Part shown: piece by piece, positions 4,633 to 39,875 of the stretch
Numbering within the stretch: the stretch's first letter is position 1
Layout: each line of letters opens with the position of its first letter
Source: Shigella phage EP23
Length of the DNA stretch: 44,077 bases
Sequence record: JN984867
Strand: one strand, 5' to 3'
Notes under the pieces: generated by a model
Told to the model about the DNA's origin: nothing
The model's database searches: none
The model's input: the letters and a program-made list of their open reading frames with translations, nothing else
Position numbers and translations under genes: made by a program

Positions 4633-4954
4633 ATATGCAGCGATTGGACTGGGTGTCGGTCTGGCGGTAGGATTCTGGCTAGGTGACTCCTATCGCGCTG
4701 GCGTAGTGGCGGAGGCGGCGCAAGAAGCGCAAGCCCAAGCCCAACGGCAGCAAACTAAAGTTGTTGAGCGCTCCGTGCAGGCCGAACAGGCCCGCGACGT
4801 AGAATACCGGACTATCACGAAAGAGGTTGTTAAATATGTTACGCGCCCTAACCGCCCTGATTGTAGTTTTGATGCTGAGCGCGTGCGGATCAAGCAACGT
4901 GCCGTTGATGCCGCTAACGGAGTCGGCGCTGCGACCGCCGTGCAAGTTCGATAG
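4595..4954 (+). CDS. i-spanin (Rz-like)
   Basis: N-terminal TM helix IKYAAIGLGVGLAVGFWLG, Ala/Gln/Glu-rich coiled coil, C-terminal PDCSFDAERVRIKQRAVDAAN. An out-of-frame lipoprotein ORF overlaps its 3' half. A GTG at 4625 preceded by GGGGG may be the real start. Confidence 0.7.
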   Translation: MRSLKTGGYGVIKYAAIGLGVGLAVGFWLGDSYRAGVVAEAAQEAQAQAQRQQTKVVERSVQAEQARDVEYRTITKEVVKYVTRPNRPDCSFDAERVRIKQRAVDAANGVGAATAVQVR

Positions 4955-6438: not shown

Positions 6439-6467
6439 TATCATTTCCTCGTTGTTGGTGTGCAACC

Positions 6468-6497
6468 AATATAATGCAACCAACATCTGCAATGCAA
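6468..6497 (-). promoter_or_regulatory. sigma70-like promoter for the antisense island
   Basis: On the minus strand: TTGCAT-18 nt-TATATT. TTGGTTGCA boxes abut both sides of the -10, giving TATATTGGTTGCACACCAAC, which nearly repeats at 39515-39534. Confidence 0.55.
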
Positions 6498-10578: not shown

Positions 10579-11304
10579 ATGGGTTATCAACTTCCTAACG
10601 GGTCCAGCGTCCAGATTGGGTCCGTACTTGGCACCGGCATCGCTGTTACAGCAGCTACCAACGCCGCCGCGTCGATCTCTGATCTTACGAAAGGTTGCGT
10701 TATCACCTGCGCGGCTTCTCATGGCCTGCAAGTTGGTGACGTGGTTATGTTCACTAAAACCCCGTGGGTCCGTGCGCTGAACCGCGCGTTTATCGTAGGT
10801 AAAGTAGCCGAGAACGCCGTTACGCTGGCGCGCTTCGACACCTCGGACGTCACCAAATATCCTGCCGGTGCTTTTGGGGCGGGAACCCCAGGCGAAGTGG
10901 TGAAAGTGTCGAATTTTATCGACTTCCCGTTTATCACTAACGTTGCCGTGTCGGGTGGTGACCAGCAGACCACTACCTTCCAGCCGTTGCAGGTGAATAC
11001 CGCGATCAGTCTGAACACCACGAAAAACCCGTTGGTACAGACCTACACTTTCACCCACGACGAAGAAGACCCGATCCGCCCGATTCTGGAAGACCTGGAC
11101 GACACACAGAAAACCACTGTGATTAAGTTCACTAACCCGGCAGCGGCAAGCGGCAAAGGTGAAATCCGTATTTACCCGGCTAAGGTGTCTTTCCGCAAGA
11201 TTCCGTCGGCTGAAGTAAACAACGTGGAGACGGTGGAGTCCACCCTCACTATGCAATCCGATATGGTTATTTACCGTAAGGACCTGGTTGAAGCGCGGTC
11301 GTGA
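10579..11304 (+). CDS. major tail (tube) protein
   Basis: 241 aa, SD AGGAG. Followed by a strong terminator and then the chaperone G/GT pair, which is the canonical order. Confidence 0.7.
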   Translation: MGYQLPNGSSVQIGSVLGTGIAVTAATNAAASISDLTKGCVITCAASHGLQVGDVVMFTKTPWVRALNRAFIVGKVAENAVTLARFDTSDVTKYPAGAFGAGTPGEVVKVSNFIDFPFITNVAVSGGDQQTTTFQPLQVNTAISLNTTKNPLVQTYTFTHDEEDPIRPILEDLDDTQKTTVIKFTNPAAASGKGEIRIYPAKVSFRKIPSAEVNNVETVESTLTMQSDMVIYRKDLVEARS

Positions 11305-11373: not shown

Positions 11374-11736
11374 ATGGCTAAAGCACCACTCTTTACACTT
11401 GACCCTAAGCCGACTTTTAAGCTGCCGATTGAAATCCCGCGCCCAGGCGAAAACGAACCGGGCAAAATGACGTTTACCGTGCGCCACCGTCCGATCGACG
11501 AGTTTTCGCAGACCATGCAGGATACTGAGCGCAAGTTATCGGAATATGACGACAATGACCCGGACGGCTTTAACGTTATGGTCGAGGCCATCATGCACGT
11601 AGCAGAAGGCTGGAATCTGCCGGACGAATTTAACGCGGAGAACGTCCGCCGCCTGGTGGTCAACTATCCGCGCGCGTTCGGCGTGTTCCACACTTCGTAC
11701 TATCTCGAACTGATGGGATTGCGTGAAAAAAACTAA
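11374..11736 (+). CDS. tail assembly chaperone (gpG-like)
   Basis: 120 aa. The ATG at 11374 lies behind GGAG (the track used an upstream TTG). Ends at the slippery site GAA AAA AAC TAA. Confidence 0.8.
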   Translation: MAKAPLFTLDPKPTFKLPIEIPRPGENEPGKMTFTVRHRPIDEFSQTMQDTERKLSEYDDNDPDGFNVMVEAIMHVAEGWNLPDEFNAENVRRLVVNYPRAFGVFHTSYYLELMGLREKN

Positions 11737-12050
11737 TTGAGGCGGCGCGACGCTTTTATGGCCCGCCGCCACCCTCCGAAGATTTAGCCGCGAGTTTATG
11801 GGGGGCGACCCCGGAAGATGTTTGCCCCCCGGTTGCACTATGGCCCGACAATGCGAAGGTAGTCGCAGTCTTCACAGATTGCTCCACGCAATGGCGCACC
11901 GGATTCGGTGGTGCATACGGCATTGACTACGGCGTACTGGAATGGCTTTTTAAGATGCACGGCATCGAAAACGCGCAGCGTGCGTTTAAAGATATTAAGC
12001 TAATGGAACGCATTGCGCTGGACGAAATGGCGCGGCATAACCCCGCATAG
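11374..12050 (+). CDS. tail assembly chaperone frameshift product (gpGT-like), -1 PRF at 11727-11733
   Basis: I translated the -1 frame from 11733 to the TAG at 12048-12050. It is open for 105 codons and encodes a gpT-like sequence: ...ALWPDNAKVVAVFTDCSTQWRTGFGGAYGIDYGVLEWLFKMHGIENAQRAFKDIKLMERIALDEMARHNPA. Confidence 0.75.
11727..11733 (+). other. slippery heptamer A AAA AAC for the G/GT -1 frameshift
   Basis: An X XXY YYZ pattern in the G frame, 1 codon before the G stop. Confidence 0.7.
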
Positions 12051-12323
12051 CAAATCGGGACAGGCGGGACGTCCCGATTTATCCCGTTCTGTCCCGCACA
12101 TCTAAAAACTGCATATTTACCCACTACGATTGCATAAACTAAAAGCGGGACAGGGGTGCTGTCCCGATCTGTCCCGCCCCTCAAAAGTGAATGGCTATGC
12201 GGTTTTTCTGCATAAAACAAACGGGACAGAAAGCGGGACAGAATGAGGCGGGACAAAGCGGGACAGCACCCCTGTCCCAGTCAGTGCTGCCGCGGGTTTT
12301 GACCGATCGGGACAGGCGGGACA
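12051..12323. repeat. array of GCGGGACA boxes (module 1)
   Basis: GGGAC starts at 12057, 12066, 12147, 12223, 12235, 12250, 12260, 12309 and 12318. GTCCC lies at 12071, 12091, 12161, 12171 and 12274. The 19-bp palindrome GGGACAGCACCCCTGTCCC is at 12260-12278 and its reverse complement at 12147-12165. Confidence 0.85.
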
Positions 12324-12377
12324 ACTCCCAGTCTTTCAGACTAGACGGGGGTCAGCGGCCCCCCTCGTCTGAGACTG
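12308..12377 (+). repeat. 70-bp element, copy 1 (identical to 39263-39332)
   Basis: cgggacaggcgggacaactcccagtctttcagactagacgggggtcagcggcccccctcgtctgagactg. Compared base by base with copy 2: 70/70 identical. Confidence 0.95.
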
Positions 12378-12446
12378 AATAAGGTTTGTTTTAAATTCGC
12401 TGATACAATGACCGACGGCAACTGCATAAAAAAGGGGGACTGCATA

Positions 12447-15089
12447 ATGGCAGATCAGGCAGCGGGCATCACGCTCAAGGCGGACGTCGCGCAAATTAAA
12501 ACGGCTAATACTGTGCTGGACACATTTGCGCAGAAATCCGAGAACACAGAACAGAAAGTAAAGAAATTAAACGACACCCTCGGCAAGTCGAAAAAGGTTA
12601 CTGGCGACGCCGCGGGCGGAATGGAAAAGTTAGCGACTGAATCGCAGCGTGCCGCCGATGGCATGACGAAACAGGAGCGACTCGCCAGCCGATTAGGCAT
12701 GTCGACCAAAAACCTGGGATTCGCATCGCGGAACGCCGCATTCCAGTTACAGGATATTGCGGTGACGCTTGAGATGGGTATGCCGGTGCACCGCGTTATG
12801 CTTCAGCAGTTACCGCAGCTTACTGGGGCGTTTGGCGGACTGGGTAACACGCTGCGATATGTTGCGGGCTTTCTCGGCCCAGTAGGGATCGGCCTTTCAG
12901 CATTAACGGCGACGTTAGGCGTAGGGGTGGCAATTACGACCCGCGCAGAGAACCAGGTGGCGGCGCTTAATAAGACGCTGGCGCTGTCCGGTAATATTTC
13001 AGGCCTCACAGCTAACCAGATCCTTGTGCTGTCCGAGAACGCCGAGCGCATGGGCGGGTCATTTCGCAAGACGCGTGACACAATCCAGGCGCTGGCGGCG
13101 GCGGGTGTGAAAGCGGGTGGTGACTTCGGCGCATTGGCTAAGGTAGTTAATGACTTTGCGAAGGTGTCCAGCCAGCCGATCGAGGATGTGGTAGCGGCGG
13201 TGGCGAAGCTGTCAACAGACCCCGTTGGCGGACTGCGTGCGCTGGCGGATAAGTATCACGTCGTAAACGAAGCGCAGATCCAGCAGGTACAGTCGCTCGT
13301 TGATGCGGGTCGTGAGACAGACGCGGTTGCGTTGGCTAACAAAACAGCCGCTGCGTCGTTCACCAGCATGACCAATGAGATCAAGGCGAACATGGGTACG
13401 CTTGAGCGATCTATGAACGTCGTCACATCGGCAGCCAAATCAATGTGGGACGCCATCCTGGATGTGGGCCGCGCGCAGTCCTCCAATGAGTCCGAGATGA
13501 AAGCGCGCGAATCACTACAGCGCATGACCACGGCTTACTATGCCGAGATGAAAGCGGTAAACGCTGCCGGTGGGGTAATGACTGAAGCGCAGAAAGCACG
13601 TATTAACATGCTTTACAGCGAACTGGTCGCCCAGGAAAAAGTGGTGGCGTCGCTCACCCTGCGTAACCGTGCTGAGCGAGACAACGCCCGCGCCGCAGAC
13701 GAATCCGCAAAGGCGAACGAGGAGGCCAACCGCACCGCCCGCGACCGCGCTGCGTTCGAGAAGGAGTACGCAACTAACGCGAAGAAGCGCGCCGACGAGA
13801 TCGCCCGCCTCAATTTGCTGAATAAGCGCGGCGTTATTGATGAGAAAGAGCTTGCCGAGGCGGTGAAGCAGGTAAACGAGCGTTATAAAGACCCCGCCCC
13901 GAAGAAGGCCGCCGCTGTACGAGTCGATGCCGGTATGAAAATGCTGGAAGTCGCACGGAGCGAACTGGCCCAGCTTCGAGAATCCGGCAAGCAGATCGAA
14001 GCCAACGCGTCTACGCAGACCCGCACGCAACGCGCTCAAGCGGCCTTAAACAAGCTGATCGCCGACAATGAGCAGTTAATCGCGGCGAGCAAAGAAAGGG
14101 CGCTAACGGCAGCAGAGAAGCAGCAGATGGTAGAATTCGGACGCGTGAAGGAAGTGCGCGAGCAGATTGTCGAAGAAGCCAAACTACTGGACGCGAAAGA
14201 GAAGCAGGTTAAGGCGCACGCGCAGATCGACGCCTTCGTTAAGAACCAGAATGCCGAGCTAAAAGCCACCGCGGCGGGCTATGCGCTTTCTACTCGAGAA
14301 GCGGCAAACCTGCGTGAAGAATTGCAGCTAATCGACCGCCTGAAGCGTGTAGGCGCTAACGATACCGATATTGACAAGGCGGTGTCTAAGCTGCGGGAAG
14401 TGCAGGAGGCGCAGACCGGCGCTAACGCCTCGCTATGGGATGGATTCAGTCGCGGGCTTAAGGATAGCGTGGATGAAATGGGTAACGGATATACGCAGAT
14501 GGCGTCGCTCACGAAATTCACGTTCAGCGCTATGCAGGACACAATGAACGAGTTTTTCGAGACGGGCAAGTTGAACGCAAAGGATATGGTTAAATCCATC
14601 CTGAGCGAGTTAATCAAGCTGGCTACCTCGCAGGCGTTCAAGTCTATCGTTAGCGCTTTCGGTGGTGACGGCGGCAAAAACGGATTGTTCGGCGCTATCT
14701 TCTCTGGCCTCACTAAGAATGCGGACGGCGGAGCGTACGCAGGAGGCAATCTCGCGGCCTATTCGGGGAAAGTGGTAAGCCAGCCTACCTTCTTTAGTTA
14801 TGGCGTCCAGGCGTTCGCTAAGGGTGCGGGATTGATGGGCGAGGCTGGACCAGAGGCCATCATGCCACTGAAGCGCGGGCCGGACGGGAAACTGGGCGTT
14901 GCCGCGTCGGGCGCAGGCGGTGGTATGGTCGTGACGACTAACGTTTACACGGGGACTGGTAAAACGGATACCAGTGTCAGCGGGCCGGACCCCCGTACTG
15001 CGCAAGCGTTCGGCAAGCAAATCACCGAGGCGGTGAAGGCCGAGATCGTGAAAGCGACGAAACCGGGTGGTGTACTTTACAAACGATGA
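12447..15089 (+). CDS. tape measure protein
   Basis: 880 aa, long Ala/Gln/Lys-rich helical protein downstream of G/GT. Start trimmed to the ATG at 12447 behind GGGGGA. Confidence 0.9.
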   Translation: MADQAAGITLKADVAQIKTANTVLDTFAQKSENTEQKVKKLNDTLGKSKKVTGDAAGGMEKLATESQRAADGMTKQERLASRLGMSTKNLGFASRNAAFQLQDIAVTLEMGMPVHRVMLQQLPQLTGAFGGLGNTLRYVAGFLGPVGIGLSALTATLGVGVAITTRAENQVAALNKTLALSGNISGLTANQILVLSENAERMGGSFRKTRDTIQALAAAGVKAGGDFGALAKVVNDFAKVSSQPIEDVVAAVAKLSTDPVGGLRALADKYHVVNEAQIQQVQSLVDAGRETDAVALANKTAAASFTSMTNEIKANMGTLERSMNVVTSAAKSMWDAILDVGRAQSSNESEMKARESLQRMTTAYYAEMKAVNAAGGVMTEAQKARINMLYSELVAQEKVVASLTLRNRAERDNARAADESAKANEEANRTARDRAAFEKEYATNAKKRADEIARLNLLNKRGVIDEKELAEAVKQVNERYKDPAPKKAAAVRVDAGMKMLEVARSELAQLRESGKQIEANASTQTRTQRAQAALNKLIADNEQLIAASKERALTAAEKQQMVEFGRVKEVREQIVEEAKLLDAKEKQVKAHAQIDAFVKNQNAELKATAAGYALSTREAANLREELQLIDRLKRVGANDTDIDKAVSKLREVQEAQTGANASLWDGFSRGLKDSVDEMGNGYTQMASLTKFTFSAMQDTMNEFFETGKLNAKDMVKSILSELIKLATSQAFKSIVSAFGGDGGKNGLFGAIFSGLTKNADGGAYAGGNLAAYSGKVVSQPTFFSYGVQAFAKGAGLMGEAGPEAIMPLKRGPDGKLGVAASGAGGGMVVTTNVYTGTGKTDTSVSGPDPRTAQAFGKQITEAVKAEIVKATKPGGVLYKR

Positions 15090-22031: not shown

Positions 22032-23660
22032 ATGGCAGCGGGTACGCTCTCCGTAACGAACAATAGCAAGGCTGTAGTAGGGGTTGGCACAACGTTTACC
22101 GAGTACAAGGCTGGTGACTTCTTATCGCTGGTGGTTGGGCAAGTGCCTTACACCGTGGCGATCGCGTCCATCGAAAGCGCAACCGCGCTCACACTGGTGT
22201 TGCCGTTCGACGGCCCAACGGCGACGGGTCTGGCCTGGGACGGCATCAAACGTGACACCATGTCATTGGCGACGATGGGCGTAACCGTCCAGGCGCAAAA
22301 AGCATTGCGATTGATGATCGCAGATGAGAACAACTGGCGCGCAATCTTCGGAGAAGAAGAGGAAATAACAGTGACGTTACCTAACGGGCAGGTTATGCAG
22401 GGCATGTCATGGGGCTATCTGTCGCAGCTAATGAAGCAGATCGACCCCGTAGAAATGCGCAACCTGCAACAACAGGCCGAGACGGCAAAAAACCAGGCTG
22501 TTACTGCGAAGGGCCAGGCAGAATCAGCGCGCGATGCGGCTAATACAGCAAAAACTGGCGCGGAGAACGCCCGCAACCAGGCCAACACCGCACGTGATCA
22601 GGCCAACACCGCCAAAACAGGCGCAGAATCAGCGCGCGATGCGGCTAATACAGCAAAAACTGGTGCGGAGAACGCCCGCAGCCAGGCGCAAGGGTATCGC
22701 GACGAAGCAGAGCAGTTTAAAAACCAAATCAACCCATCACAGTTCATGCTTAAGTCGCAAAACCTTAGCGACGTAGCGAACAAAGATACGGCGCGGGACA
22801 ATCTGTCACTAGGCCGCACTCAGCGTGCGCAATTTGAGGGGGTTGACCTGTCTAAAAGCGACTGGCCCGGCTTAAGGTTTATTACAACCAGCATGTCACC
22901 AACAGAGGTCGGCTATCGCGTTGTCTTTGAGCATGATTCGAGTGATAACCGCATGGCGCTCTACTGGCGAAATGGCTCAGATGCCAATGGGCAGGCCGCC
23001 GTCCACTTCACCGCGCCTGCCAGCGGGCAGACGCGATTTATTGCATACAAGGAAGAAGTAAACCTTCCAGAAATTACAGGCTGGGGCGTAGCGGCTCCCT
23101 CGCAAGGACCGAGGGCGACGAACGCCACAAACCTTGCGCCGGGGCTTTATTGGGGTACCGTCGCTGACGTCGGCAATCCAATTTCAGGAACACTCGGCAT
23201 GTCGATGCTTCAAACATCAGGATCATCCGCCAATTACCGCTGCCAGTTGGTGTTTCAGGATAGCGCGGGCGGGGCGATGTATCTCCGTTCCAGTAATAGT
23301 AGCGTTTTTGGTAACTACAAGCAGGTAACTACCTCTGCGGTGTCGGATGAGCGCCTGAAAACTGTCCGGGGAAATCTTAATCTAGAAGGTGCGCTGGATA
23401 ACATAAACCGAATGGATTTTAAAATTTTCTCGTTCCTGAGTGATGGGCCGGAACGTAGCTACCGACGCGGCGTTATCTCGCAGCAGATCCGCCAGATTGA
23501 TAAGCAGTACACGAAAGAGATCGGCGGGTACTATCATCTTGATCAGACACCAATGCTACTGGACGCCCTAGCGGCAATTAAAGCATTGCGGGCGCGTGAC
23601 GAGGCTAATAAAGCAGAGATTGCAGAGTTAAAAGCGGCGATTGCAGAATTGAAAAAATAA
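22032..23660 (+). CDS. side tail fibre with C-terminal intramolecular chaperone (peptidase S74-type) domain
   Basis: 542 aa. Coiled repeat region, then a C-terminal S|DERLKTVRGNLN...IDKQYTKEIGG...ELKAAIAELKK typical of autocleaving fibre chaperone domains. Start trimmed to 22032. Confidence 0.8.
   Translation: MAAGTLSVTNNSKAVVGVGTTFTEYKAGDFLSLVVGQVPYTVAIASIESATALTLVLPFDGPTATGLAWDGIKRDTMSLATMGVTVQAQKALRLMIADENNWRAIFGEEEEITVTLPNGQVMQGMSWGYLSQLMKQIDPVEMRNLQQQAETAKNQAVTAKGQAESARDAANTAKTGAENARNQANTARDQANTAKTGAESARDAANTAKTGAENARSQAQGYRDEAEQFKNQINPSQFMLKSQNLSDVANKDTARDNLSLGRTQRAQFEGVDLSKSDWPGLRFITTSMSPTEVGYRVVFEHDSSDNRMALYWRNGSDANGQAAVHFTAPASGQTRFIAYKEEVNLPEITGWGVAAPSQGPRATNATNLAPGLYWGTVADVGNPISGTLGMSMLQTSGSSANYRCQLVFQDSAGGAMYLRSSNSSVFGNYKQVTTSAVSDERLKTVRGNLNLEGALDNINRMDFKIFSFLSDGPERSYRRGVISQQIRQIDKQYTKEIGGYYHLDQTPMLLDALAAIKALRARDEANKAEIAELKAAIAELKK
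22518..22680 (+). repeat. direct repeat inside the fibre gene (58 bp x2, 105-bp period)
   Basis: 22518-22575 versus 22623-22680 differ at 1 of 58 positions. They encode the repeated AESARDAANTAKTGAENAR segment. Confidence 0.85.
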
Positions 23661-24904: not shown

Positions 24905-24934
24905 ACTATAGTGCAACCAACCTATTGGTTGCAA
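24905..24934 (-). promoter_or_regulatory. sigma70-like promoter overlapping a perfect inverted repeat
   Basis: On the minus strand: TTGCAA-18 nt-TATAGT. The plus strand carries TGCAACCAA-ccta-TTGGTTGCA (24912-24933). Confidence 0.55.
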
Positions 24935-26570: not shown

Positions 26571-26599
26571 AATATAATGCAACCAATATGCTTATGCAA
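26571..26599 (-). promoter_or_regulatory. sigma70-like promoter
   Basis: On the minus strand: TTGGTTGCAT (-35 TTGCAT)-17 nt-TATATT, with a second TTGGTTGCA abutting the -10. Confidence 0.6.
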
Positions 26600-26604
26600 C
26601 CAAT

Positions 26605-28851: not shown

Positions 28852-29110
28852 CCAATAAATCGCAGTCGGATATGTTGTCGATAACGCGAACGTCAGCACC
28901 GCGGCGGGCCATTCGCTCATGTTCACGTACCTGGTGCGGCTTCGGTTTTCCTCCGGGGCGCTTCACTTCGACGAACACTATTTTGCCGTTGATGATAATA
29001 ATCAGGTCGGGCGCACCTGCGCGCCCCTCCCATGCCAGTTTTCGGCAGAATCCGCCAACATCTTTCACCCGTCTCATCAGGTGGCTTTGAATCTTGCCTT
29101 CTGGTGTCAT
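28832..29110 (-). CDS. VRR-NUC domain nuclease
   Basis: 92 aa. GAPDLIIIINGKIVFVEVKRPGGKPKPHQVREHERM matches the VRR-NUC core (D...EVK). Its ATG overlaps the polymerase stop by 1 nt (TAATG). Confidence 0.8.
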   Translation of the reverse strand: MTPEGKIQSHLMRRVKDVGGFCRKLAWEGRAGAPDLIIIINGKIVFVEVKRPGGKPKPHQVREHERMARRGADVRVIDNISDCDLLVAELVA

Positions 29111-32100
29111 TACTTGCGGTAGCGATACATGCAATCGCCCTCTGCGGCAAGTGGGAAGCCTTTCGCCCAAACCGGCAGGTCGCACATCAGCGCGCACAAC
29201 TCCTCGGTTGTGTAGTCGTCGGTATCCGGCACTTCGGTTATCAGCTCATCGTGTACGGAAAGTACGATCTCATACCCCGCAGCTTCAACGCCAGGCATGG
29301 ACCATGCGAGAATATCGCGGCACAACGCCTGTACGATGTTTTCCGTCAGTTTGCCGCCGTAGGTATACTGGAATCCCCACTGGCGCGTCGTCTGATTCTC
29401 GCCCTGATATTTAATGCGTGTGCTGGTGCGCTTCTTGCCGGTGTCTTCGTCGATCTCGGTCGTGACAGACAGCGCGATGCCAGGGTAGCTCATGATGCGC
29501 CCTGACGGCAACTCAATTTTAAGCCACCACCCCGCCGCGTTCGGGTCGTCGCGCTCCTCGTCGAAGGTCGGGTCATGCTTCGCCTTCGTTCGAACAATTT
29601 TGAGCGCTTTCCTGCCATCCGGGCGAACGTTCGCGCCAGCCCAGTACGCTTTGCCCGGATTGCGGATCGCGCAGAGCACCGCGTCCTCCAGTTCGGCCCA
29701 AAAGGCTACCGTCATCGGGTGAGACTCACGCCACATACGTTTGATCGCGTCACACGTCAGCCACACGTTTTTCGGCAGTATGTAAGTTGGGCGCTCGTCT
29801 TTCTTGCCAGGCTTCGGCGGGCGCTTCTCCTCGTTAATGCGAGCGTACTCATAACCCCGCTTCGCCGCCGCCCAAATGTGATCCGGGAATGTGCCCTTCA
29901 TGACGTCAGCCATAGTGTAAAGGTCGAGGCCCAGGTTTTTAGCGAACTGCAAGAACGCCGCGACGCCGCCACCATAGCCCAGGCCAAGCTCGCAGTTATG
30001 CGCCACCAGAAAACCAGACTTAGACGCAATAAGGAACCGGTTTCCGTCTTCCACATCAATCAGGTCGTAAACCGGCTCGCAATAGGTTAACTTCCCGTTC
30101 CAGTTCAGCAATGCGGGTAAGGGCTTCATCGTACTTTCTCTGAAGCTCGGGCACGCTGCGCCGGTTACGGCAGTTTTCCGAACGGCTGACAAACCGAAGG
30201 TTTCCAGGCTCATAGTCGCCGTCTGTATCGATCCTGTCCATTTCGAAGTCTGGCTTATCCCAGCCGTCCAGCGTTTGAACGTAGAGAAGAAACGACCTTT
30301 TATCTCTCTTCCATTCGTCACATACGGCAATCCCACGACCGCCGTAGTTTTTATACCCTTTGGCGCGGGGGTTTGTCGTTCGTGATATTGCCGCTGACAG
30401 CCGGTTGAGTAGCCGCGTTCTGTGCGCATCGTCTGGCATTGCGTCATCGTAGCAAAAATACTGTTTACGATACCGCTTTGTCGCTTCAATTGCGCAGAGG
30501 TTGCATTGGGATGTTTTACCCCTTCGGACGTTGTCATACCCGACGCGTCCTGGCATCGCTCCGCAATCACATTGGGCCAGCAGTTGTCTGTGACCCTGTC
30601 GTTTTGGTAATTCGCGCAGGATAACCAGGCGTCCATACCTCTCGCCAGGGCGCGGACCATCGTGCACCTGTCTGAAACGAGTTGCCTTGCCTCCTTCCAT
30701 GAATGCGTCAAGATTTTGTGGTCTTCTGTCATCAAGACCCCGTCCACGTCTATCACTGGTTTCCACCCCATAAGGTGCGCGCCTTTTGTACTCACCCATT
30801 TTTCGCCGTTCCATACTTTATCCGTTGATGTTACGGCCATAATATCCTTGAACCCGCCATTGGTCAATACTTGGGTATGGCGGTGCAAGCAAGCCTTACC
30901 GATCTGGCGTAAGTCCTTGCGGTTGGCTTTAATGTAATCCGGGTCAAGGCCGAACATCTTACCGGCAGTCTCGCAATAGATATCGCGACCGGCCTTAAAG
31001 ACCATTAACGCTGTTTTCTCGCCAGCGATCCAGGCAAGTCCACGCCCTTCCACATTGGAGTAGTCCGCTACGACAAACTTCTTGCCCTTCGCCGGAATAA
31101 TGCACCCGCGAACGGTCGAGGCCGTTAGCTTCGATATGTCATACGCCCAGTGTGCGGTCCCGCGTAACAGGGAGTTGATGCCGTTGGTGAGCATGTGCGA
31201 CCGGACCCAAAACGAGACGTCGCTTTCACCCTCGCGGCGTTTAATCTTCCCTTCGTGGTCGTCGCTGTACTCGCCACGCGCCAGGTTTTGAGGCTGGAAG
31301 CCTTTGCCCGCCCAGCGCAGCGTGCGCTTTGCGCCGCCATACTGAAGACACCCACGGCGGCGACCATCTGCGGATAAGCCGTTAACTAGCGGATTGTACT
31401 TAGTCGATGCCGTTGATGACGCCCCGAGGCGCATTTCGATAAGCGCTTTGCCTTCGTCGGGGAAGTCCGGGTCTTCAAGCAGGTCGTTAAGCGTGGATTT
31501 CTGCGCGTTGTGGATCGTGAACGCCGGGGCGATATCACGCAGGATTGGCAGGAAGTCATTGCCTGTCAGCTTACCGCCAAATCGCTCCCAGGCTTCTTCC
31601 TTCAATTCTTCCTTATGCGCCTGCACCGCTTTGATCGCGGCGTTCGCCAGGTCAACGTCGACGTAGAAGCCGCGGTCGTTAATCAACTGGTCGATGAGCA
31701 GGATTTCATCTTCCTTAGGCGAGTTTCCCCAGTCCGGTATGCGCCAGTAGACTTCACGCATTGCGATAATATCCAGCGCGGCATAGCGCAGAAATTTGGC
31801 CCATTCTTCCGGGTGAGTCTCGCGAGTGTAGCGGCGGATTTTGTAGGTCTTAGGGGTAGGCTTACAGAATCGGTTAATCAGCGCCTTGCCTGCCTTATCC
31901 TTCGCGTGCTCTGCGTCAACGCCCAGAACCTGGCACTGCATATCGAGGCTACCGGGCAGCGCGTGGCGAAAGGCCATAATCATAGTGTCTTCGATCTGGC
32001 TTACCGGCAGGTCAATACCCCACTTCTCGCGGATAACCAGGCGGTCAAACAGGAGGCCGTTAGCCATCACTATTTTAGCCTTCTTGCGGGATACCCGGCG

Positions 32101-32298
32101 GAGCGCCTTGCGCAGTTCACGCGGCATTGTGGGGGATTCAGTGGCATCCCATGTCTGCACGCGGCCCTCGTCTATGGCGTAGGTGCAAATCATAATCTCT
32201 GTGGTTGGGTGCTCCGCGTAGGCGTACGCCCCAACTTTCTTCAGGTCCACCCCGCTAAATGTCTCGGTGTCGAGAAACAGGCGTTCGAAGTCTTTCAT
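29110..32298 (-). CDS. family A DNA polymerase precursor with 3'-5' exonuclease domain, interrupted by an intein
   Basis: Exo I FLDTETFS. Polymerase motif B is split as RQIGKA|C...HN|CELGLGYGGG. Exteins are 30892-32298 and 29110-29994. Confidence 0.9.
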   Translation of the reverse strand: MKDFERLFLDTETFSGVDLKKVGAYAYAEHPTTEIMICTYAIDEGRVQTWDATESPTMPRELRKALRRVSRKKAKIVMANGLLFDRLVIREKWGIDLPVSQIEDTMIMAFRHALPGSLDMQCQVLGVDAEHAKDKAGKALINRFCKPTPKTYKIRRYTRETHPEEWAKFLRYAALDIIAMREVYWRIPDWGNSPKEDEILLIDQLINDRGFYVDVDLANAAIKAVQAHKEELKEEAWERFGGKLTGNDFLPILRDIAPAFTIHNAQKSTLNDLLEDPDFPDEGKALIEMRLGASSTASTKYNPLVNGLSADGRRRGCLQYGGAKRTLRWAGKGFQPQNLARGEYSDDHEGKIKRREGESDVSFWVRSHMLTNGINSLLRGTAHWAYDISKLTASTVRGCIIPAKGKKFVVADYSNVEGRGLAWIAGEKTALMVFKAGRDIYCETAGKMFGLDPDYIKANRKDLRQIGKACLHRHTQVLTNGGFKDIMAVTSTDKVWNGEKWVSTKGAHLMGWKPVIDVDGVLMTEDHKILTHSWKEARQLVSDRCTMVRALARGMDAWLSCANYQNDRVTDNCWPNVIAERCQDASGMTTSEGVKHPNATSAQLKRQSGIVNSIFATMTQCQTMRTERGYSTGCQRQYHERQTPAPKGIKTTAVVGLPYVTNGREIKGRFFSTFKRWTAGISQTSKWTGSIQTATMSLETFGLSAVRKTAVTGAACPSFRESTMKPLPALLNWNGKLTYCEPVYDLIDVEDGNRFLIASKSGFLVAHNCELGLGYGGGVAAFLQFAKNLGLDLYTMADVMKGTFPDHIWAAAKRGYEYARINEEKRPPKPGKKDERPTYILPKNVWLTCDAIKRMWRESHPMTVAFWAELEDAVLCAIRNPGKAYWAGANVRPDGRKALKIVRTKAKHDPTFDEERDDPNAAGWWLKIELPSGRIMSYPGIALSVTTEIDEDTGKKRTSTRIKYQGENQTTRQWGFQYTYGGKLTENIVQALCRDILAWSMPGVEAAGYEIVLSVHDELITEVPDTDDYTTEELCALMCDLPVWAKGFPLAAEGDCMYRYRK
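29995..30891 (-). mobile_element. intein (299 aa) in polymerase motif B
   Basis: Block A CLHRHTQVLTNGGFKDI, block B LMTEDHKILT, C-terminal blocks VYDLIDVEDGNRFLIASKSGFLVAHN followed by the +1 Cys. Boundary codons checked on the sequence: 30889-30891 = Cys, 29995-30000 = His-Asn, 29992-29994 = Cys. Confidence 0.85.
30056..30814 (-). CDS. HNH-family homing endonuclease-like ORF nested inside the intein in the -1 frame
   Basis: Motifs GERYGRLVIL, CDCG...QCNLC, YKNYGGRGIAVCDEW, MDRIDTDGDYEPGNLRFVSRSENCRNRR. 30814 is the maximal ORF start. The ATG at 30700 (214 aa) lies just before the conserved core. No clear SD at either start. Confidence 0.7.
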   Translation of the reverse strand: MERRKMGEYKRRAPYGVETSDRRGRGLDDRRPQNLDAFMEGGKATRFRQVHDGPRPGERYGRLVILRELPKRQGHRQLLAQCDCGAMPGRVGYDNVRRGKTSQCNLCAIEATKRYRKQYFCYDDAMPDDAHRTRLLNRLSAAISRTTNPRAKGYKNYGGRGIAVCDEWKRDKRSFLLYVQTLDGWDKPDFEMDRIDTDGDYEPGNLRFVSRSENCRNRRSVPELQRKYDEALTRIAELEREVNLLRAGLRPD

Positions 32299-35562: not shown

Positions 35563-36078
35563 TTAATCTTCCAGTTCGAAATAAGTTTCGACGATTTCTT
35601 TTAGCTCTTTGTGGAAGTCTTCGACGTCGTCATCTTCCAGCTTAGCGATTGATTTGATCTCGAACGATTCCAGAAGGTCGTCGAATTCGTCGTTCGCATC
35701 GTCGTCATCGCCACCGGCGATAATCGCGGCATACTGTTTGATTTCGTCGCGCATCTCCGCCAGCGGATCGGCATCTTTCTTACCTTTGCCTTTCGCCGGT
35801 GCTTTCTTAGACTTAGCCGGTTTTTCGTCTTCGGCATCGGCATCGTCGTCGTCATCTTCTACGACTTCTTTTTTGGCCTTACCTTTCGCCGGTGCTTTTT
35901 TGGTTTTCGCCGGGGCTTCGTCTTCAGCGTCGTCATCTTCTACGACTTCTTTTTTGGCCTTAGACGGCTTCTTGTCTTCCTGTTTACCAACGGCAGCGCC
36001 AACGGTTTCATAATGCTTAGCGATGATTTCCAGTGCTACTACGCCGCGAGTGATCAGGTTTACGATTTGCTCAAACAT
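35563..36078 (-). CDS. highly acidic early protein with Lys/Ala-Asp/Glu repeats (171 aa)
   Basis: SD GGAGA before the ATG at 36078. Repeats KKEVVEDDD..DE.PAK.KKAPAKGK. First gene downstream of the strong 36275-36303 promoter. Confidence 0.65.
   Translation of the reverse strand: MFEQIVNLITRGVVALEIIAKHYETVGAAVGKQEDKKPSKAKKEVVEDDDAEDEAPAKTKKAPAKGKAKKEVVEDDDDDADAEDEKPAKSKKAPAKGKGKKDADPLAEMRDEIKQYAAIIAGGDDDDANDEFDDLLESFEIKSIAKLEDDDVEDFHKELKEIVETYFELED
35780..35965. repeat. tandem ~81-bp repeats within the acidic protein gene
   Basis: gtcatcttctacgacttcttttttggcctta occurs at 35851-35881 and 35932-35962. cctttcgccggtgcttt recurs nearby. Confidence 0.8.
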
Positions 36079-36274
36079 GGTATATCTCCGATTGGTTAAG
36101 TTTAGGTGTCGACCATTAACTTCGTCGGTGGCCTTAACATAGTGCCAGGTTACGCGTTCTCCCGTTCGGGTAGTGGACCTGGTTATATAATCACGGTTGG
36201 GAATCCTGACACTTCGATCCGGCCCCTGCGTTGCCCCTCTCCAGTTTGCGTCCTGCATCCTGTCGACGAGGTGA

Positions 36275-36303
36275 ATATTAGATTGGTTGCAGAAGGGAGT
36301 CAA
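36275..36303 (-). promoter_or_regulatory. strong sigma70-like early-left promoter
   Basis: On the minus strand: TTGACT-17 nt-TAATAT, with TGCAACCAA in the spacer. About 190-nt leader before the ATG at 36078. Confidence 0.65.
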
Positions 36304-36313
36304 CAACTAATTT

Positions 36314-36480: not shown

Positions 36481-36810
36481 ATGAATATCAACGACGCAAT
36501 CGAAATGCTAACGAAGACTGTCTGCAGTGAGACTAGCCGGTCCTGGGCGTATACCGATGCCGTGGGGGCGGTGCTATTTGAAATCGAACGTCTGCGACTT
36601 ACCGAAAAAGAATTGCGCGCGAAGCTGGAATTACTCAACGGTACGGCAGCCAGCAAGCTGCAAAAGCACAATGAAGAAATGGAAGAATACAAAAAACAGG
36701 TTATCCGTTTGCGCGCCGAGGGAAAATCCTGGGCGATGATCGCTGAGTTGACAGGAATTAATCAGAGCACCGTGCGCTCCTGGGTACGCAATAACAAAAC
36801 TTCGAAGTAA
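36481..36810 (+). CDS. HTH DNA-binding protein (109 aa)
   Basis: C-terminal helix-turn-helix KSWAMIAELTGINQSTVRSWVRNN. First gene of the rightward early operon. Confidence 0.6.
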   Translation: MNINDAIEMLTKTVCSETSRSWAYTDAVGAVLFEIERLRLTEKELRAKLELLNGTAASKLQKHNEEMEEYKKQVIRLRAEGKSWAMIAELTGINQSTVRSWVRNNKTSK

Positions 36811-36820
36811 GGCAACGGCA

Positions 36821-39085
36821 ATGAGCTTAATTAAATTCGCTGTAACACGACCCGCTAAAAAAGGCGAAAAAGCCAGGGCGGAAAACTTCCAGATGACCAC
36901 CGATGAATTTTTCGAATTTATCAATGACGCGAAAGAAATATCATCGGTGCATATCAACAAGACCGAGGATAAAGCGGAGTATGCGCGCCGCAAGCGTAAG
37001 GCCGATGGCATCGTAGCGTATACCAGTGACGGCTTACGCCGCAAGACCAGCGCGGTGGACCGCTCGATCCTGTTCTTTGATATTGACCGCACCGACACTC
37101 GCACCTTACGCCGCTGCCGTAAGGCGTTCATTGACGCGGGTCTGGAACACGTATTCCACACAACCACCGGCGACCGCCACCCGCTTAAAGGCGGCACGCG
37201 TTGCGCTCGCTTCCTGGTACTCACTGATAAGCCGGTCCCGGCTGAAGACCTGGGCCGTGTCCAGTATGCGCTATTACATCAACTTGGTCTGTCGGATGTG
37301 GACTTCGACGATTGCACGAAAGACACAAACCGCCTGATGTACCTGCCGCACCAGCAATCGGTTATTAAGTGCCACTACGGCAAACGTGCCCGCGTCCGTC
37401 GTCTGCTTCGCCTGGCGGATACGCTTGGCGTGGAGAAGGAAGAAGTACGCCGCGAGCTTACCCAGGGCGACGACGCAGTGGCGGACGGGATTCTGGACTG
37501 GTGCTTCCAGGCAGGATTTGAGGAGTTATCTTCCGGTCGCGGTTATGAAGTGCCATGCCCGAACGAACATCTGCACAGCGGCGAAGGGTCGACGGCTATC
37601 ATGGTCAAGGATGGCGAGATCCGTTTCAAGTGTATGCACACAGGCAACGAGTGTTGCTCTGAGCTAAATAGACACCAGCACCTGGCGCTACGTCTTATCG
37701 GGATACCGGACCACCTGAACGTCGAGCCGCACAACATGTCGCGTAAGCAAATCGCCGCCATCCTGCCAGGTCTGGACGACGAGGAAGTCGAATCCTTATA
37801 TGATCATATTGTTGATGCAGTTGGCGACGGCGAAGAATACGGCGTGTGCACCGATGCGGATCTGGATAACGAGCCGGTCGCACTATTCAGTAAGCACGAC
37901 CCGATCATCGAAGGCCTGGTCAACTTCAAATCGACCTGGTACATGGCTGGCGAGTCGAACATCGGTAAATCGTTCTACGTGCTGGGCCAAATGGGCGCGG
38001 TTGCCGCGGGGATTCCGTTCGGCGGTGCGAAGGTCGTCCAGTCTCATTGCTTCTATTTCGACGCGGAAGGTGGCGAAGCCTCCAACCAGCGTAAGGAAGC
38101 ATTGCAGATCAAATATGAGCACGACCTGGACAAGCTGCACATTATTGACCTGCAATCACGCGGCTGGGATATCACCAGCAAATCAGGCTTGCGTGAAGTT
38201 ATCAGCTTCATCAACCGCACCGCTAACGGCGAGCCGGTTGGCCTGGTGGCGTTCGACTCACTCAACCAGACTGTTGCGCTGCGGTCCGCCGATGCAAAAC
38301 CGTTCGACGAGAACAACGCCAGCGATATGGGCGAAGTGGTCAAAGCGCTGAAGGCCATTGCGGAAAATACAGGCGGCAGTGCGGGCGTCATCCACCACCC
38401 GGCGAAAGGTGCAAACGGCCGCAGATCTCCCCGTGGGTCCGGCGCGCTGCATGGTGCTGTCGATTCTGCGTTCTTCCTGGAGCAACCGGACGACAACCAG
38501 CCAGGTCAATTGAACCTGTATCACGAAAAGGCACGTAACGGCATCAAGCAAGCGCCGCGCGGCTTCGTCCTGCTCAAGTGCAAGGTTAAGGTGGATCTCC
38601 GCAAGTCCGAAGCGTTCGAAGCCCACCAGTCCACCAGCACCGGGCCAGACTTCGGCGATGTGGTTGCCGGTTGGGACGTCAAACCAATTGCGTCCACCCC
38701 GCGCGACGAGACTCTATACCTCGTACCGGTAGCCCTGGCACCGTTCGCGATAGAACAGGCGAAGGCGGCGGGCAAAGCCGCAGTTAAGGAAGAGAACACC
38801 GCCGGTCCGCGCAACGAAAAAGAGAAAGTGCTTTATGCGGCCCTGGAAAAACTGATGGCAGATAACCCTGACCATACTGGATTCAGTAAATCGGCAATTG
38901 TACGCCAGGCGGGACTCGCTAAGGGTGGCACTTCGACGAAGGCAATCGACGATATGGTCGAGCGCGGCGTGATTGGTTTCTATACAGACCCGCACACCGG
39001 GGCCATATATGGGTCGTCGAATTTAGTCATCAAATCGGAGATCCCCATAACGCTTTCGGCGACCGATGACGACCTGAAAGACTAA
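36821..39085 (+). CDS. primase-helicase (N-terminal primase/polymerase-like domain, zinc finger, RepA/DnaB-like ATPase)
   Basis: 754 aa. LFFDIDRTD, CPNEHLH...CMHTGNECC, Walker A GESNIGKS, Walker B VAFDSLNQ. Confidence 0.8.
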   Translation: MSLIKFAVTRPAKKGEKARAENFQMTTDEFFEFINDAKEISSVHINKTEDKAEYARRKRKADGIVAYTSDGLRRKTSAVDRSILFFDIDRTDTRTLRRCRKAFIDAGLEHVFHTTTGDRHPLKGGTRCARFLVLTDKPVPAEDLGRVQYALLHQLGLSDVDFDDCTKDTNRLMYLPHQQSVIKCHYGKRARVRRLLRLADTLGVEKEEVRRELTQGDDAVADGILDWCFQAGFEELSSGRGYEVPCPNEHLHSGEGSTAIMVKDGEIRFKCMHTGNECCSELNRHQHLALRLIGIPDHLNVEPHNMSRKQIAAILPGLDDEEVESLYDHIVDAVGDGEEYGVCTDADLDNEPVALFSKHDPIIEGLVNFKSTWYMAGESNIGKSFYVLGQMGAVAAGIPFGGAKVVQSHCFYFDAEGGEASNQRKEALQIKYEHDLDKLHIIDLQSRGWDITSKSGLREVISFINRTANGEPVGLVAFDSLNQTVALRSADAKPFDENNASDMGEVVKALKAIAENTGGSAGVIHHPAKGANGRRSPRGSGALHGAVDSAFFLEQPDDNQPGQLNLYHEKARNGIKQAPRGFVLLKCKVKVDLRKSEAFEAHQSTSTGPDFGDVVAGWDVKPIASTPRDETLYLVPVALAPFAIEQAKAAGKAAVKEENTAGPRNEKEKVLYAALEKLMADNPDHTGFSKSAIVRQAGLAKGGTSTKAIDDMVERGVIGFYTDPHTGAIYGSSNLVIKSEIPITLSATDDDLKD

Positions 39086-39173
39086 ATCCTATTTTGAGTG
39101 TTTTTAGCTGGTCGCATTGGTTGCCGTGCAGTATAAATATAGTGAATAGTTATGCAATAAAACTGCATAAAGT

Positions 39174-39278
39174 AAGCGGGACAAAAAGCGGGACAAACTT
39201 GGGGCGGGACAAAGCGGGACAGCACCCCCGTCCCGCCCCGGATGACGCGGCCTGGAGAGGAGCGGGACAGGCGGGACA
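39174..39278. repeat. array of GCGGGACA boxes (module 2)
   Basis: GGGAC starts at 39178, 39190, 39206, 39216, 39264 and 39273. GTCCC lies at 39230. 39204-39234 matches 12248-12278 at 30 of 31 positions. Confidence 0.85.
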
Positions 39279-39332
39279 ACTCCCAGTCTTTCAGACTAGA
39301 CGGGGGTCAGCGGCCCCCCTCGTCTGAGACTG
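39263..39332 (+). repeat. 70-bp element, copy 2 (identical to 12308-12377)
   Basis: 70/70 identity by direct comparison. Confidence 0.95.
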
Positions 39333-39491
39333 CATAAAATCCGGGATTGCAAAATACACGGCAGCACATTGGAAATCGCGGTCGTCGATGAACTGGGCAA
39401 CCAATGCGAGTTGCAGAATGTGGTGTGAAAAATGCAGTTTGCAGTCACAGCTGATAGCGATCAACTTTTTCATGCGCATGATTAATATTGG

Positions 39492-39520
39492 TTGCATTCA
39501 TGCCAGCACCCTGCTAGATT
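39492..39520 (+). promoter_or_regulatory. sigma70-like promoter
   Basis: TTGGTTGCAT (-35 TTGCAT)-17 nt-TAGATT, followed by GGTTGCACACCAAC (the same post -10 sequence as at 6468), then SD GAGGG and the ATG at 39549. Confidence 0.6.
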
Positions 39521-39548
39521 GGTTGCACACCAACATGAGGGCTGAACA

Positions 39549-39875
39549 ATGAAAGCGATTATCTGGAATTACGCAATGGCTATGGCGAAGGCACAAGAAG
39601 CGGCGGAGTTCGCCGGGGAGGGGGCGGAAGCAGTAGAGAGACTATCGGCAGCGTGGTCCGTTGTTCGCGTCACGCAGCAGGCCATCGCCTGTATGCTTGA
39701 GCGCCGCTTCGACACGATGGCGGAGATCCAGCCGTTGGCGAACGCTATCCAGGACTACGCGCTTGCATTTGCCCGTGAACGCCTGGCGTATCGCTTCGGG
39801 ATCGGAGAGACGGCAGTGACAAACGTTGCCCGGATTAAAGCCCAGCGTGAGCTATTCGCCCAGCTTGCGAAATAA
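39549..39875 (+). CDS. hypothetical protein (108 aa)
   Basis: ORF with an SD, downstream of the 39492 promoter. Confidence 0.6.
   Translation: MKAIIWNYAMAMAKAQEAAEFAGEGAEAVERLSAAWSVVRVTQQAIACMLERRFDTMAEIQPLANAIQDYALAFARERLAYRFGIGETAVTNVARIKAQRELFAQLAK

Follow-up and report, generated by a model that had tools for sequence, protein, structure and literature searches.

The window analysed in this work, i.e., the whole 44,077-nucleotide stretch deposited as sequence record JN984867, is a complete Dhillonvirus genome, that of Shigella phage EP23. The same 70 nucleotides are found in it at two places (12308-12377 and 39263-39332); the two copies are 100% identical, and both of them lie on the plus strand, in direct orientation. 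When the comparison is extended, the match around the 70-mer is 97% over 78 nt, and a looser homology can be followed for about 200 nt (12186-12382 versus 39131-39337), which indicates that the flanks of the 70-mer are diverged paralogues and not unrelated sequence. The duplication and the common strand, already reported in a preliminary description of this DNA, were confirmed by sequence comparison; the same description had presented the flanks as diverged, and the divergence is real, although the paralogy can still be recognized throughout these 200 nt.

The 70-mer represents the core of a module of about 200-300 bp. Module A (about 12050-12425) is located between the tail-chaperone and the tape-measure genes, and module B (about 39090-39370) directly after a gene coding for a helicase-primase of 754 aa (36821-39085, plus strand). 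Each module comprises a GAATAGTTATGCA-type motif, iteron arrays, a final iteron pair with a 49-bp palindrome, an ACGGCARC octamer, and a promoter-like sequence. The iterons are CGGGACA boxes, both direct and inverted, clustered about one helical turn apart with spacings of 9-15 nt. The window contains 22 of these sites against about 6 expected, and 17 of them fall in the two module regions, which confirms the previously noticed array of boxes ahead of each copy of the 70-mer. The array of module A (12222-12278, plus strand) is made up of four direct CGGGACA iterons, spaced by 12, 15, and 10 nt, and of an inverted half-site, and four direct iterons plus an inverted half-site also form the array of module B (39177-39234, plus strand). 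Extra distal clusters of direct and inverted iterons are present only in module A (12056-12176), where iterons also form a 32-nt inverted repeat (12147-12178 and 12247-12278) that is absent from module B and whose arms, 94% complementary, are 68 nt apart. The flanking motif GAATAGTTATGCA...CTGCATAA is located at 39144-39170 (plus strand) in module B and, as a degenerate copy, at 12190-12215 in module A; it is kept even in those lineages where the iterons differ.

The first 16 nt of the 70-mer are a pair of iterons, CGGGACA-GG-CGGGACA (12308-12323 in module A and 39263-39278 in module B, plus strand), and the imperfect 49-bp palindrome occupies positions 12329-12377 and, with the same sequence, 39284-39332 (covariance-model hits of 83.7 and 82.8 bits, respectively). 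Palindrome A reads CAGTCT-TTC-AGACT / A / GACGGGGG-loop-CCCCCC(T)CGTC / TG-AGACTG. Past this palindrome, and before the tape-measure gene (start at 12447), an extended -10-like sequence, TGATACAAT, can be read at 12401-12409 (plus strand); it is conserved in the relatives examined, was not called by a consensus promoter scan, and might act as a promoter element. A promoter-like TTGCAT-17 nt-TAGATT can also be read at 39492-39520 (plus strand), 160 nt past palindrome B and just before the gene at 39549; its 8/12 matches are below the scan threshold, and it overlaps TTGGTTGCA motifs. No sigma-70-like promoter was called in 11700-12700 or in 38800-39800, and read-through from the upstream genes is possible. 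The first ACGGCAAC octamer past palindrome A is at 12415-12422 (plus strand), its equivalent in module B being at 39358-39365. As for AT-rich DNA, stretches with TTATGCA motifs are found at 12187-12217, 39140-39176, and 12378-12400, with no defined repeated element of the 13-mer type in them, and no single clear AT-rich unwinding element was found in the modules.

The element is present in 157 related phage records, at two places in most of them, and in 14 out of the 14 contigs where this could be checked the two copies have the direct orientation; no copy was found in the E. coli genomes and plasmids searched. In the GenBank record of Sodalis phage SO-1, both loci are marked as repeat regions, namely "region A", which precedes the tape-measure gene, and "region B", which follows the helicase-primase gene. 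No description of the element was retrieved from the literature, which was searched for the box sequence, the iterons, promoters of Dhillonvirus, and origins of Guernseyvirinae. The metagenomic contig ERR11172925_9173 (L387 and L396; 27,589 nt) starts inside module A and ends inside module B of a relative; evidently, the duplicated module breaks the short-read assemblies of these phages.

The perfect identity of the two copies is specific to EP23. In 15 Dhillonvirus-type genomes, copies A and B differ at 2-12 of 74 positions, mostly in the spacer past the second box, in the apical loop, and in the length of the G/C runs, and variants are often common to both copies of the same genome. These differences, together with the variants shared within single genomes, suggest that the identity observed in EP23 is the outcome of a recent gene conversion superimposed on constraint. 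It had previously been proposed that perfect conservation implies strong constraint; the constraint is retained here, whereas gene conversion between the two paralogous modules, both of them constrained, appears to be the best explanation of the perfect identity itself.

The comparison was extended to more distant phages through the helicase-primase, which was found in 643 phage records. Its homologues are graded in identity (98%, 79-87%, 66-69%, and 43-48%), and the more distant module-bearing relatives share 37-48% of their residues with the EP23 protein. A module is located directly after the helicase-primase gene in Dhillonvirus, in some Guernseyvirinae, and in unclassified relatives, and the same layout is found past this gene in Pantoea phage AH01, Salmonella phage FSL SP-031, Hafnia phage TS33, and several metagenomic phages. 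In these relatives, one or more GAATAGTTATGCA motifs are followed by iterons, by the final iteron pair, and, after 0-5 nt, by the palindrome; then come a TTATGCA-type motif, the sequence CACGGCARCA, and a sigma-70 promoter, e.g., TTGACA-17-TATTGT. The final iteron pair abuts the palindrome (0-5 nt) in every lineage examined. In Jerseyvirus and Kagunavirus, a homologue of the helicase is present, with no intergenic module directly past its gene. An IMG/VR search with the tape-measure protein retrieved generic tape-measure loci and none of the relatives sought, and an IMG/VR scan for TGAATAGTTATGCA gave mainly chance matches and one useful locus (L202).

The sequence of the iterons varies with the lineage of the helicase-primase. 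At least nine iteron types can be recognized across the lineages, including TCCGACA, CGGACAA, GGGATAA, GGGGATR, GGGGAGA, GGGAKA, and TTGCGAGT in the relatives at 37-48% identity. Already in the relatives at 66-69%, the iterons have switched to GTGTGGCA, GTGTGCCA, or GGTGCCA, and the AGTCT/AGACT palindrome is kept in both of those whose sequence reaches the palindrome (the GTGTGGCA and GTGTGCCA ones). In the GTGTGGCA phage, the copy preceding the tape-measure gene also has GTGTGGCA iterons; that is, both modules have switched together, which suggests that the two copies follow one and the same specificity determinant. A second module before the tape-measure gene is also found in the lineage at 46% identity, and only a single module in three Guernseyvirinae examined. 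Sequences matching the IHF consensus WATCAANNNNTTR are found between the iteron array and the last pair in several relatives (e.g., AATCAATAGCTTA and AATCAATAACTTA; L175 at about 4880-4900, L379 at about 10975-10990, and L397 at about 1345-1365); in Dhillonvirus, the corresponding spacer is GC-rich and has no IHF match.

Concerning the structure of the palindrome, the 70-mer had been proposed to fold into two adjacent stem-loops. Such stem-loops can be drawn, but the stretch 12329-12377 is predicted to form a single nested imperfect hairpin of about 20 bp (-27.6 kcal/mol with RNA parameters), held together by the pairings CAGTC/GACTG, TCAGAC/GTCTGA, and G-run/C-run, whereas the two adjacent stem-loops reach -15.2 kcal/mol, i.e., they are disfavoured by 12 kcal/mol, the first of them having only 5 bp. 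In the fold ensemble, the probability of this first hairpin is about 0 and that of the outer stem is 0.98, and DNA parameters leave the ranking unchanged; hence, the 49-bp stretch can be regarded as one imperfect palindrome, which folds in this nested way on either strand. The 58-nt core, taken as DNA, folds better than its shuffled versions whichever strand is used (z = -3.7 and -3.5), and a 96-nt context taken as RNA is unremarkable (z = -1.9). The palindromes of eight out of eight lineages fold better than shuffles on both strands (z = -1.95 to -4.4). In 15 of the 18 elements, the antisense (minus) strand folds as well as or better than the sense strand, which is thus not the better folder; this bias is suggestive only, since the lineages are not independent and the counts of G-T pairs show no clear difference.

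The stems show almost no variation inside the genus; the covariation counted there is uninformative, and the nested and two-hairpin models are not separable by it. Between lineages, the architecture is kept and the sequence has turned over: the arms (e.g., AGTCT/AGACT, TCCTC/GAGGA, TCTCC/GGAGA, CATC/GATG, and CTCCT/AGGAG) flank a GC-rich apical stem that often carries one bulge. With the covariance model of the element, both copies of the window score 83 bits and the AH01 palindrome 24 bits, and compensatory changes were seen, e.g., in L140, where the GC stem has G-C instead of A-T at its base, and in L386, where T-A replaces G-C. The real covariation evidence is the complete turnover of the sequence under a retained architecture.

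These data bear on the possibility that the element acts at the RNA level, the special case proposed in the preliminary description being a likeness to the put antitermination RNAs of phage HK022. It is known that put RNAs are located downstream of PL and PR, within the transcript, and form two long stem-loops (PMC9378689); putL is found just after PL and putR about 270 nt past the start of PR. Like the put sites, whose features are those given in PMC9378689, the EP23 element is about 70 nt long, is present twice, and precedes long operons on their sense strand. Unlike the put stem-loops, which are V-shaped with a triplex, it forms one nested hairpin, and it is located upstream of the local promoters and abuts DNA iterons; the promoter-like elements sit downstream of it both in EP23 and in its relatives. 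Searching Rfam with the 70-mer gave no match, either at the gathering thresholds or at E<=10; the only matches at E<=10 were sub-threshold, miRNA-like hairpins on the large inverted repeat of region A, which are spurious and can be traced to the 32-nt inverted repeat of that module. The covariance model R1, run against the 25-32 kb region of HK022, found nothing in the PL/PR region (the put sites are unannotated in that record), its one match in this phage, of 16 bits (E = 0.18), being inside the helicase gene. The likeness to put fails on every testable feature, i.e., fold, promoter position, Rfam, covariance model, and strand; a put-like antitermination RNA is thus extremely improbable, and a tempting but unsupported claim can be removed.

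More generally, the element might work in read-through transcripts as a site of RNase III processing, as a stabiliser of 3' ends, or in some other way as a cis-acting RNA. With its approximately 20 bp, imperfect and interrupted by internal loops, the hairpin has the size and shape of a T7-type RNase III site, and like the T7-type hairpins it is intergenic and on the sense strand; moreover, it lies between operons, and there is no terminator between it and the upstream genes. Unlike them, it is always coupled to iterons (there is no RNA rationale for the pair of DNA iterons that abuts it, at 0-5 nt, in all the lineages), and the two strands fold equally well or the antisense one folds better (as well or better in the 15 of 18 elements mentioned above). 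On the whole, an RNA-level function seems quite unlikely. An intrinsic terminator, already dismissed in the preliminary description for want of a U-tract, can be rejected in EP23 on the same ground, since neither a T-tract nor a terminator-like site is present past either copy; a weak terminator role is possible in some Guernseyvirinae, where a T-rich TTATTCATTT follows the palindrome. An N4-type hairpin promoter was also considered and rejected, no virion RNA polymerase gene being apparent in the list of open reading frames or in the SO-1 annotation.

In EP23, the gene of the helicase-primase ends about 90 nt before the start of module B, and all the module-bearing relatives likewise have a module next to this gene; module A is not adjacent to it. 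The protein has an N-terminal primase-like region and a RepA/AAA_25 helicase domain (Pfam AAA_25), and a winged helix is predicted in its C-terminal 100 aa or so (38783-39085). Its AlphaFold model matches the hexameric helicase RepA of RSF1010 (TM 0.60-0.64). The association of this protein with the boxes goes beyond the relatives described above. An IMG/VR scan for CGGGACANNCGGGACA retrieved many contigs, unrelated at the DNA level, with direct and inverted CGGGACA arrays around a GC-rich palindrome, and the helicase-primase is the sole protein of the window with homologues in them (22 loci). In the 20 loci examined, the helicase-primase gene mostly has the first box overlapping its 3' end or no more than about 60 nt from its stop codon, with two exceptions, one with a box 285 nt downstream and one with none downstream within its sequence.

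The IMG/VR loci sharing the box (among them L004, L007, L019, L021, L038, L044, L057, L070, L075, L081, and L117) have a CGGGACA box that is exactly that of EP23, arrayed on both sides of a perfect, GC-rich palindrome; the arrays are located immediately past an AAA_25 helicase gene, and these helicases carry a C-terminal W-R-x-x-F-Y ... K-K-A-F-x-R-A motif. No profile similarity was found between the Dhillon-type winged helix and the KKAFxRA C-termini of these unrelated helicases, and a protein search with the C-terminal 169 aa of the helicase-primase alone returned just one fragment. Few residues of the winged helix track the iteron type, and this correlation is confounded by phylogeny. A small HTH protein encoded nearby (36481-36810) is unlikely to be the reader of the iterons, since its recognition helix is invariant across the iteron types.

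The comparative evidence comes close to a protein-binding DNA site, which the preliminary description had kept as a fallback. More precisely, the 70-mer is probably the core of a duplicated cis module of the replication-origin type, serving the phage's own helicase-primase. The observations counted in favour of this reading are the association with the helicase, the kept architecture, the joint switching of the iterons, the structure found in every lineage, and the conservation within the group. The modules have features of iteron-type origins, i.e., clustered short direct and inverted repeats, a helicase gene with a predicted DNA-binding domain next to module B, and iterons that co-vary with the lineage of the presumed initiator, and a feature of the ssi type, i.e., a hairpin-forming palindromic architecture maintained despite a complete turnover of the sequence. 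The anatomy, the conservation, the change of the iterons with the phage lineage at both copies, the protein folds, and the genomic association have been shown, whereas the identity of the iteron-binding protein and replication as the process involved are inferred. Several observations count against the origin-type reading: the GC skew follows gene orientation and marks neither module; the region between the tail-chaperone and the tape-measure genes is an odd location for an origin; and, as reported above, there is no single clear AT-rich unwinding element, the winged-helix residues tracking the iterons are few and confounded by phylogeny, the winged helix has no profile similarity to the C-termini of the unrelated box-associated helicases, and Jerseyvirus and Kagunavirus have the helicase without the intergenic module.

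According to the mechanism that might be envisaged, the winged helix at the C-terminus of the primase-helicase would bind the iterons and assemble the RepA-like hexameric helicase; unwinding or supercoiling would let the palindrome extrude as a hairpin or a cruciform, and the extruded palindrome might then represent a loading or priming signal, resembling the ssi hairpins of the IncQ oriV. The two copies might be two origins, or an origin and a cis enhancer, as in the case of P4 ori and crr.

The oriV of the IncQ plasmids RSF1010/R1162 is made up of RepC iterons and of the ssiA and ssiB hairpins, and works with the RepA helicase and the RepB' primase. The EP23 module shares with it an iteron array beside structured palindromic DNA, a helicase structurally related to RepA, and the fact that the element encodes its own primase and DNA-binding function. 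There is no sequence similarity, and the EP23 module differs from oriV in that primase, helicase, and winged helix belong to one polypeptide; in the length of the iterons (7-8 bp versus 20 bp in IncQ); in having one palindrome per module instead of two ssi sites on opposite strands; and in the presence of two modules in direct orientation, the priming from the hairpin being here putative. In the satellite phage P4, the alpha protein is a primase-helicase with a C-terminal winged helix, its 8-bp iterons occur in both orientations, and ori and crr share them. A primase-helicase with a C-terminal winged helix, short iterons, and two separated cis regions are thus common to P4 and EP23; unlike the EP23 protein, alpha has an SF3 helicase and a DnaG-type primase and not a RepA-type helicase, and crr is located 4.5 kb from ori and lacks such a palindrome, whereas the EP23 copies are complete paralogous modules 27 kb apart. 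Lastly, in the pri-rep-ori region of SaPIs and PICIs, a short-iteron origin is placed immediately 3' of the initiator-helicase gene and its iterons co-vary with the specificity domain of the initiator. The EP23-type module is similarly located 3' of the helicase gene and its iterons vary by lineage, but in SaPIs two iteron sets flank an AT-rich region, there is no conserved GC-rich palindrome, the origin is single-copy, and the helicase belongs to another family.

Since both modules end in promoter-like sequences, a transcriptional role is possible, and a DNA-level regulatory module is the main rival of the origin-type reading, although an unlikely one. A protein bound to the iterons and an architectural palindrome would regulate the downstream promoters, i.e., those of the tail operon after module A and of the lysis/late genes after module B, and this might couple late transcription to replication. 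Both copies are indeed directly followed by promoter-like sequences and by late genes, whose sense strand they share; in the relatives, a strong TTGACA-17-TATTGT promoter is found 60-100 nt past the palindrome, and the promoter-proximal part is included in the duplicated unit. Nevertheless, such near-consensus sigma-70 promoters need no activator, and the iterons are located upstream of the promoter, without overlapping it as repressor operators usually do. Furthermore, the arrays in unrelated contigs track the helicase gene and not a particular downstream operon, and no co-variation with the iterons is seen in the one dedicated HTH regulator of the neighbourhood. It is very unlikely that the modules are cis sites at which the DNA is packaged (pac), partitioned, or recombined site-specifically, or undergoes some similar transaction, even though short repeats arrayed in both orientations also typify pac, parS, and res sites and some relatives have IHF-consensus-like sequences between iteron clusters: the module is not near the terminase genes (56-2013), the phage is virulent, with no adjacent partition or recombinase genes, recombination between the direct copies would split the genome, and the association is with the helicase-primase.

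Going back to the origin-type reading, its most extended version, which we regard as tentative and rather doubtful, is that Dhillonvirus and its relatives may have an undescribed origin design, in which one protein carrying primase, helicase, and winged helix would read lineage-specific iterons, the palindrome, conserved in structure, would be a loading/priming hairpin, ACGGCARC would be a genome-wide priming/orientation signal of the same enzyme, and two origins would fire, with replication coupled to late/tail expression. If so, each origin would be placed directly upstream of a late promoter and the initiation of replication would be physically coupled to the expression of the late/tail genes. 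Among coliphages and Salmonella phages, Dhillonvirus and Guernseyvirinae count as some of those isolated most often, and they are used in therapy cocktails and in studies on defence systems; the module represents a directly testable candidate for their replication origin. In addition, CGGGACA, GTGTGGCA, GTGTGCCA, and GGTGCCA offer natural specificity switches for dissecting how a winged helix might read iterons.

The ACGGCARC octamer occurs 45 times in the window (34 on the plus and 11 on the minus strand) against about 3-5 expected, that is, about one site per kb and a 10-25-fold over-representation. All three reading frames are represented, genes of either orientation carry it, and intergenic DNA contains it as well. 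It is equally over-represented, with 33-59 copies, in SO-1, Pantoea phage AH01, Salmonella phage FSL SP-031, and Hafnia phage TS33 (L002, L377, L378, and L379), which all have the helicase-primase in common. The first octamer is placed 20-40 nt past each palindrome, and the sites of the window nearest to the left of both modules are on the minus strand, those to the right forming long runs on the plus strand. The same replication machinery may use the octamer as a signal for priming or orientation.

A different motif, TTGGTTGCA, is present in 12 exact copies, mostly intergenic and often paired and overlapping promoter-like hexamers with TTGCAT as the -35 (6461-6483, 22005, 24912-24933, 26578-26603, 36283, 39117, 39488-39527, 40072, and 42490). 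Related motifs are TGTTGGCTG in Guernseyvirinae and the GCAACCAAC arrays past the helicase gene of Edwardsiella phage eiAU. The conserved small HTH protein with the invariant recognition helix (36481-36810) probably has TTGGTTGCA as its operator.

Lastly, some features of single genes can be mentioned. The DNA polymerase open reading frame (29110-32298, minus strand) is a 1062-aa read-through, with a 252-aa open reading frame nested in another frame (30056-30814, minus strand); in the SO-1 record, the homologous region is annotated as a group I intron with an HNH endonuclease. Tandem repeats of about 63/105 nt are found inside the tail-fibre gene (22518-22687), and acidic low-complexity repeats, of the GTCTTCGTCGTC type on the plus strand, occur in an early minus-strand open reading frame (35563-36306).
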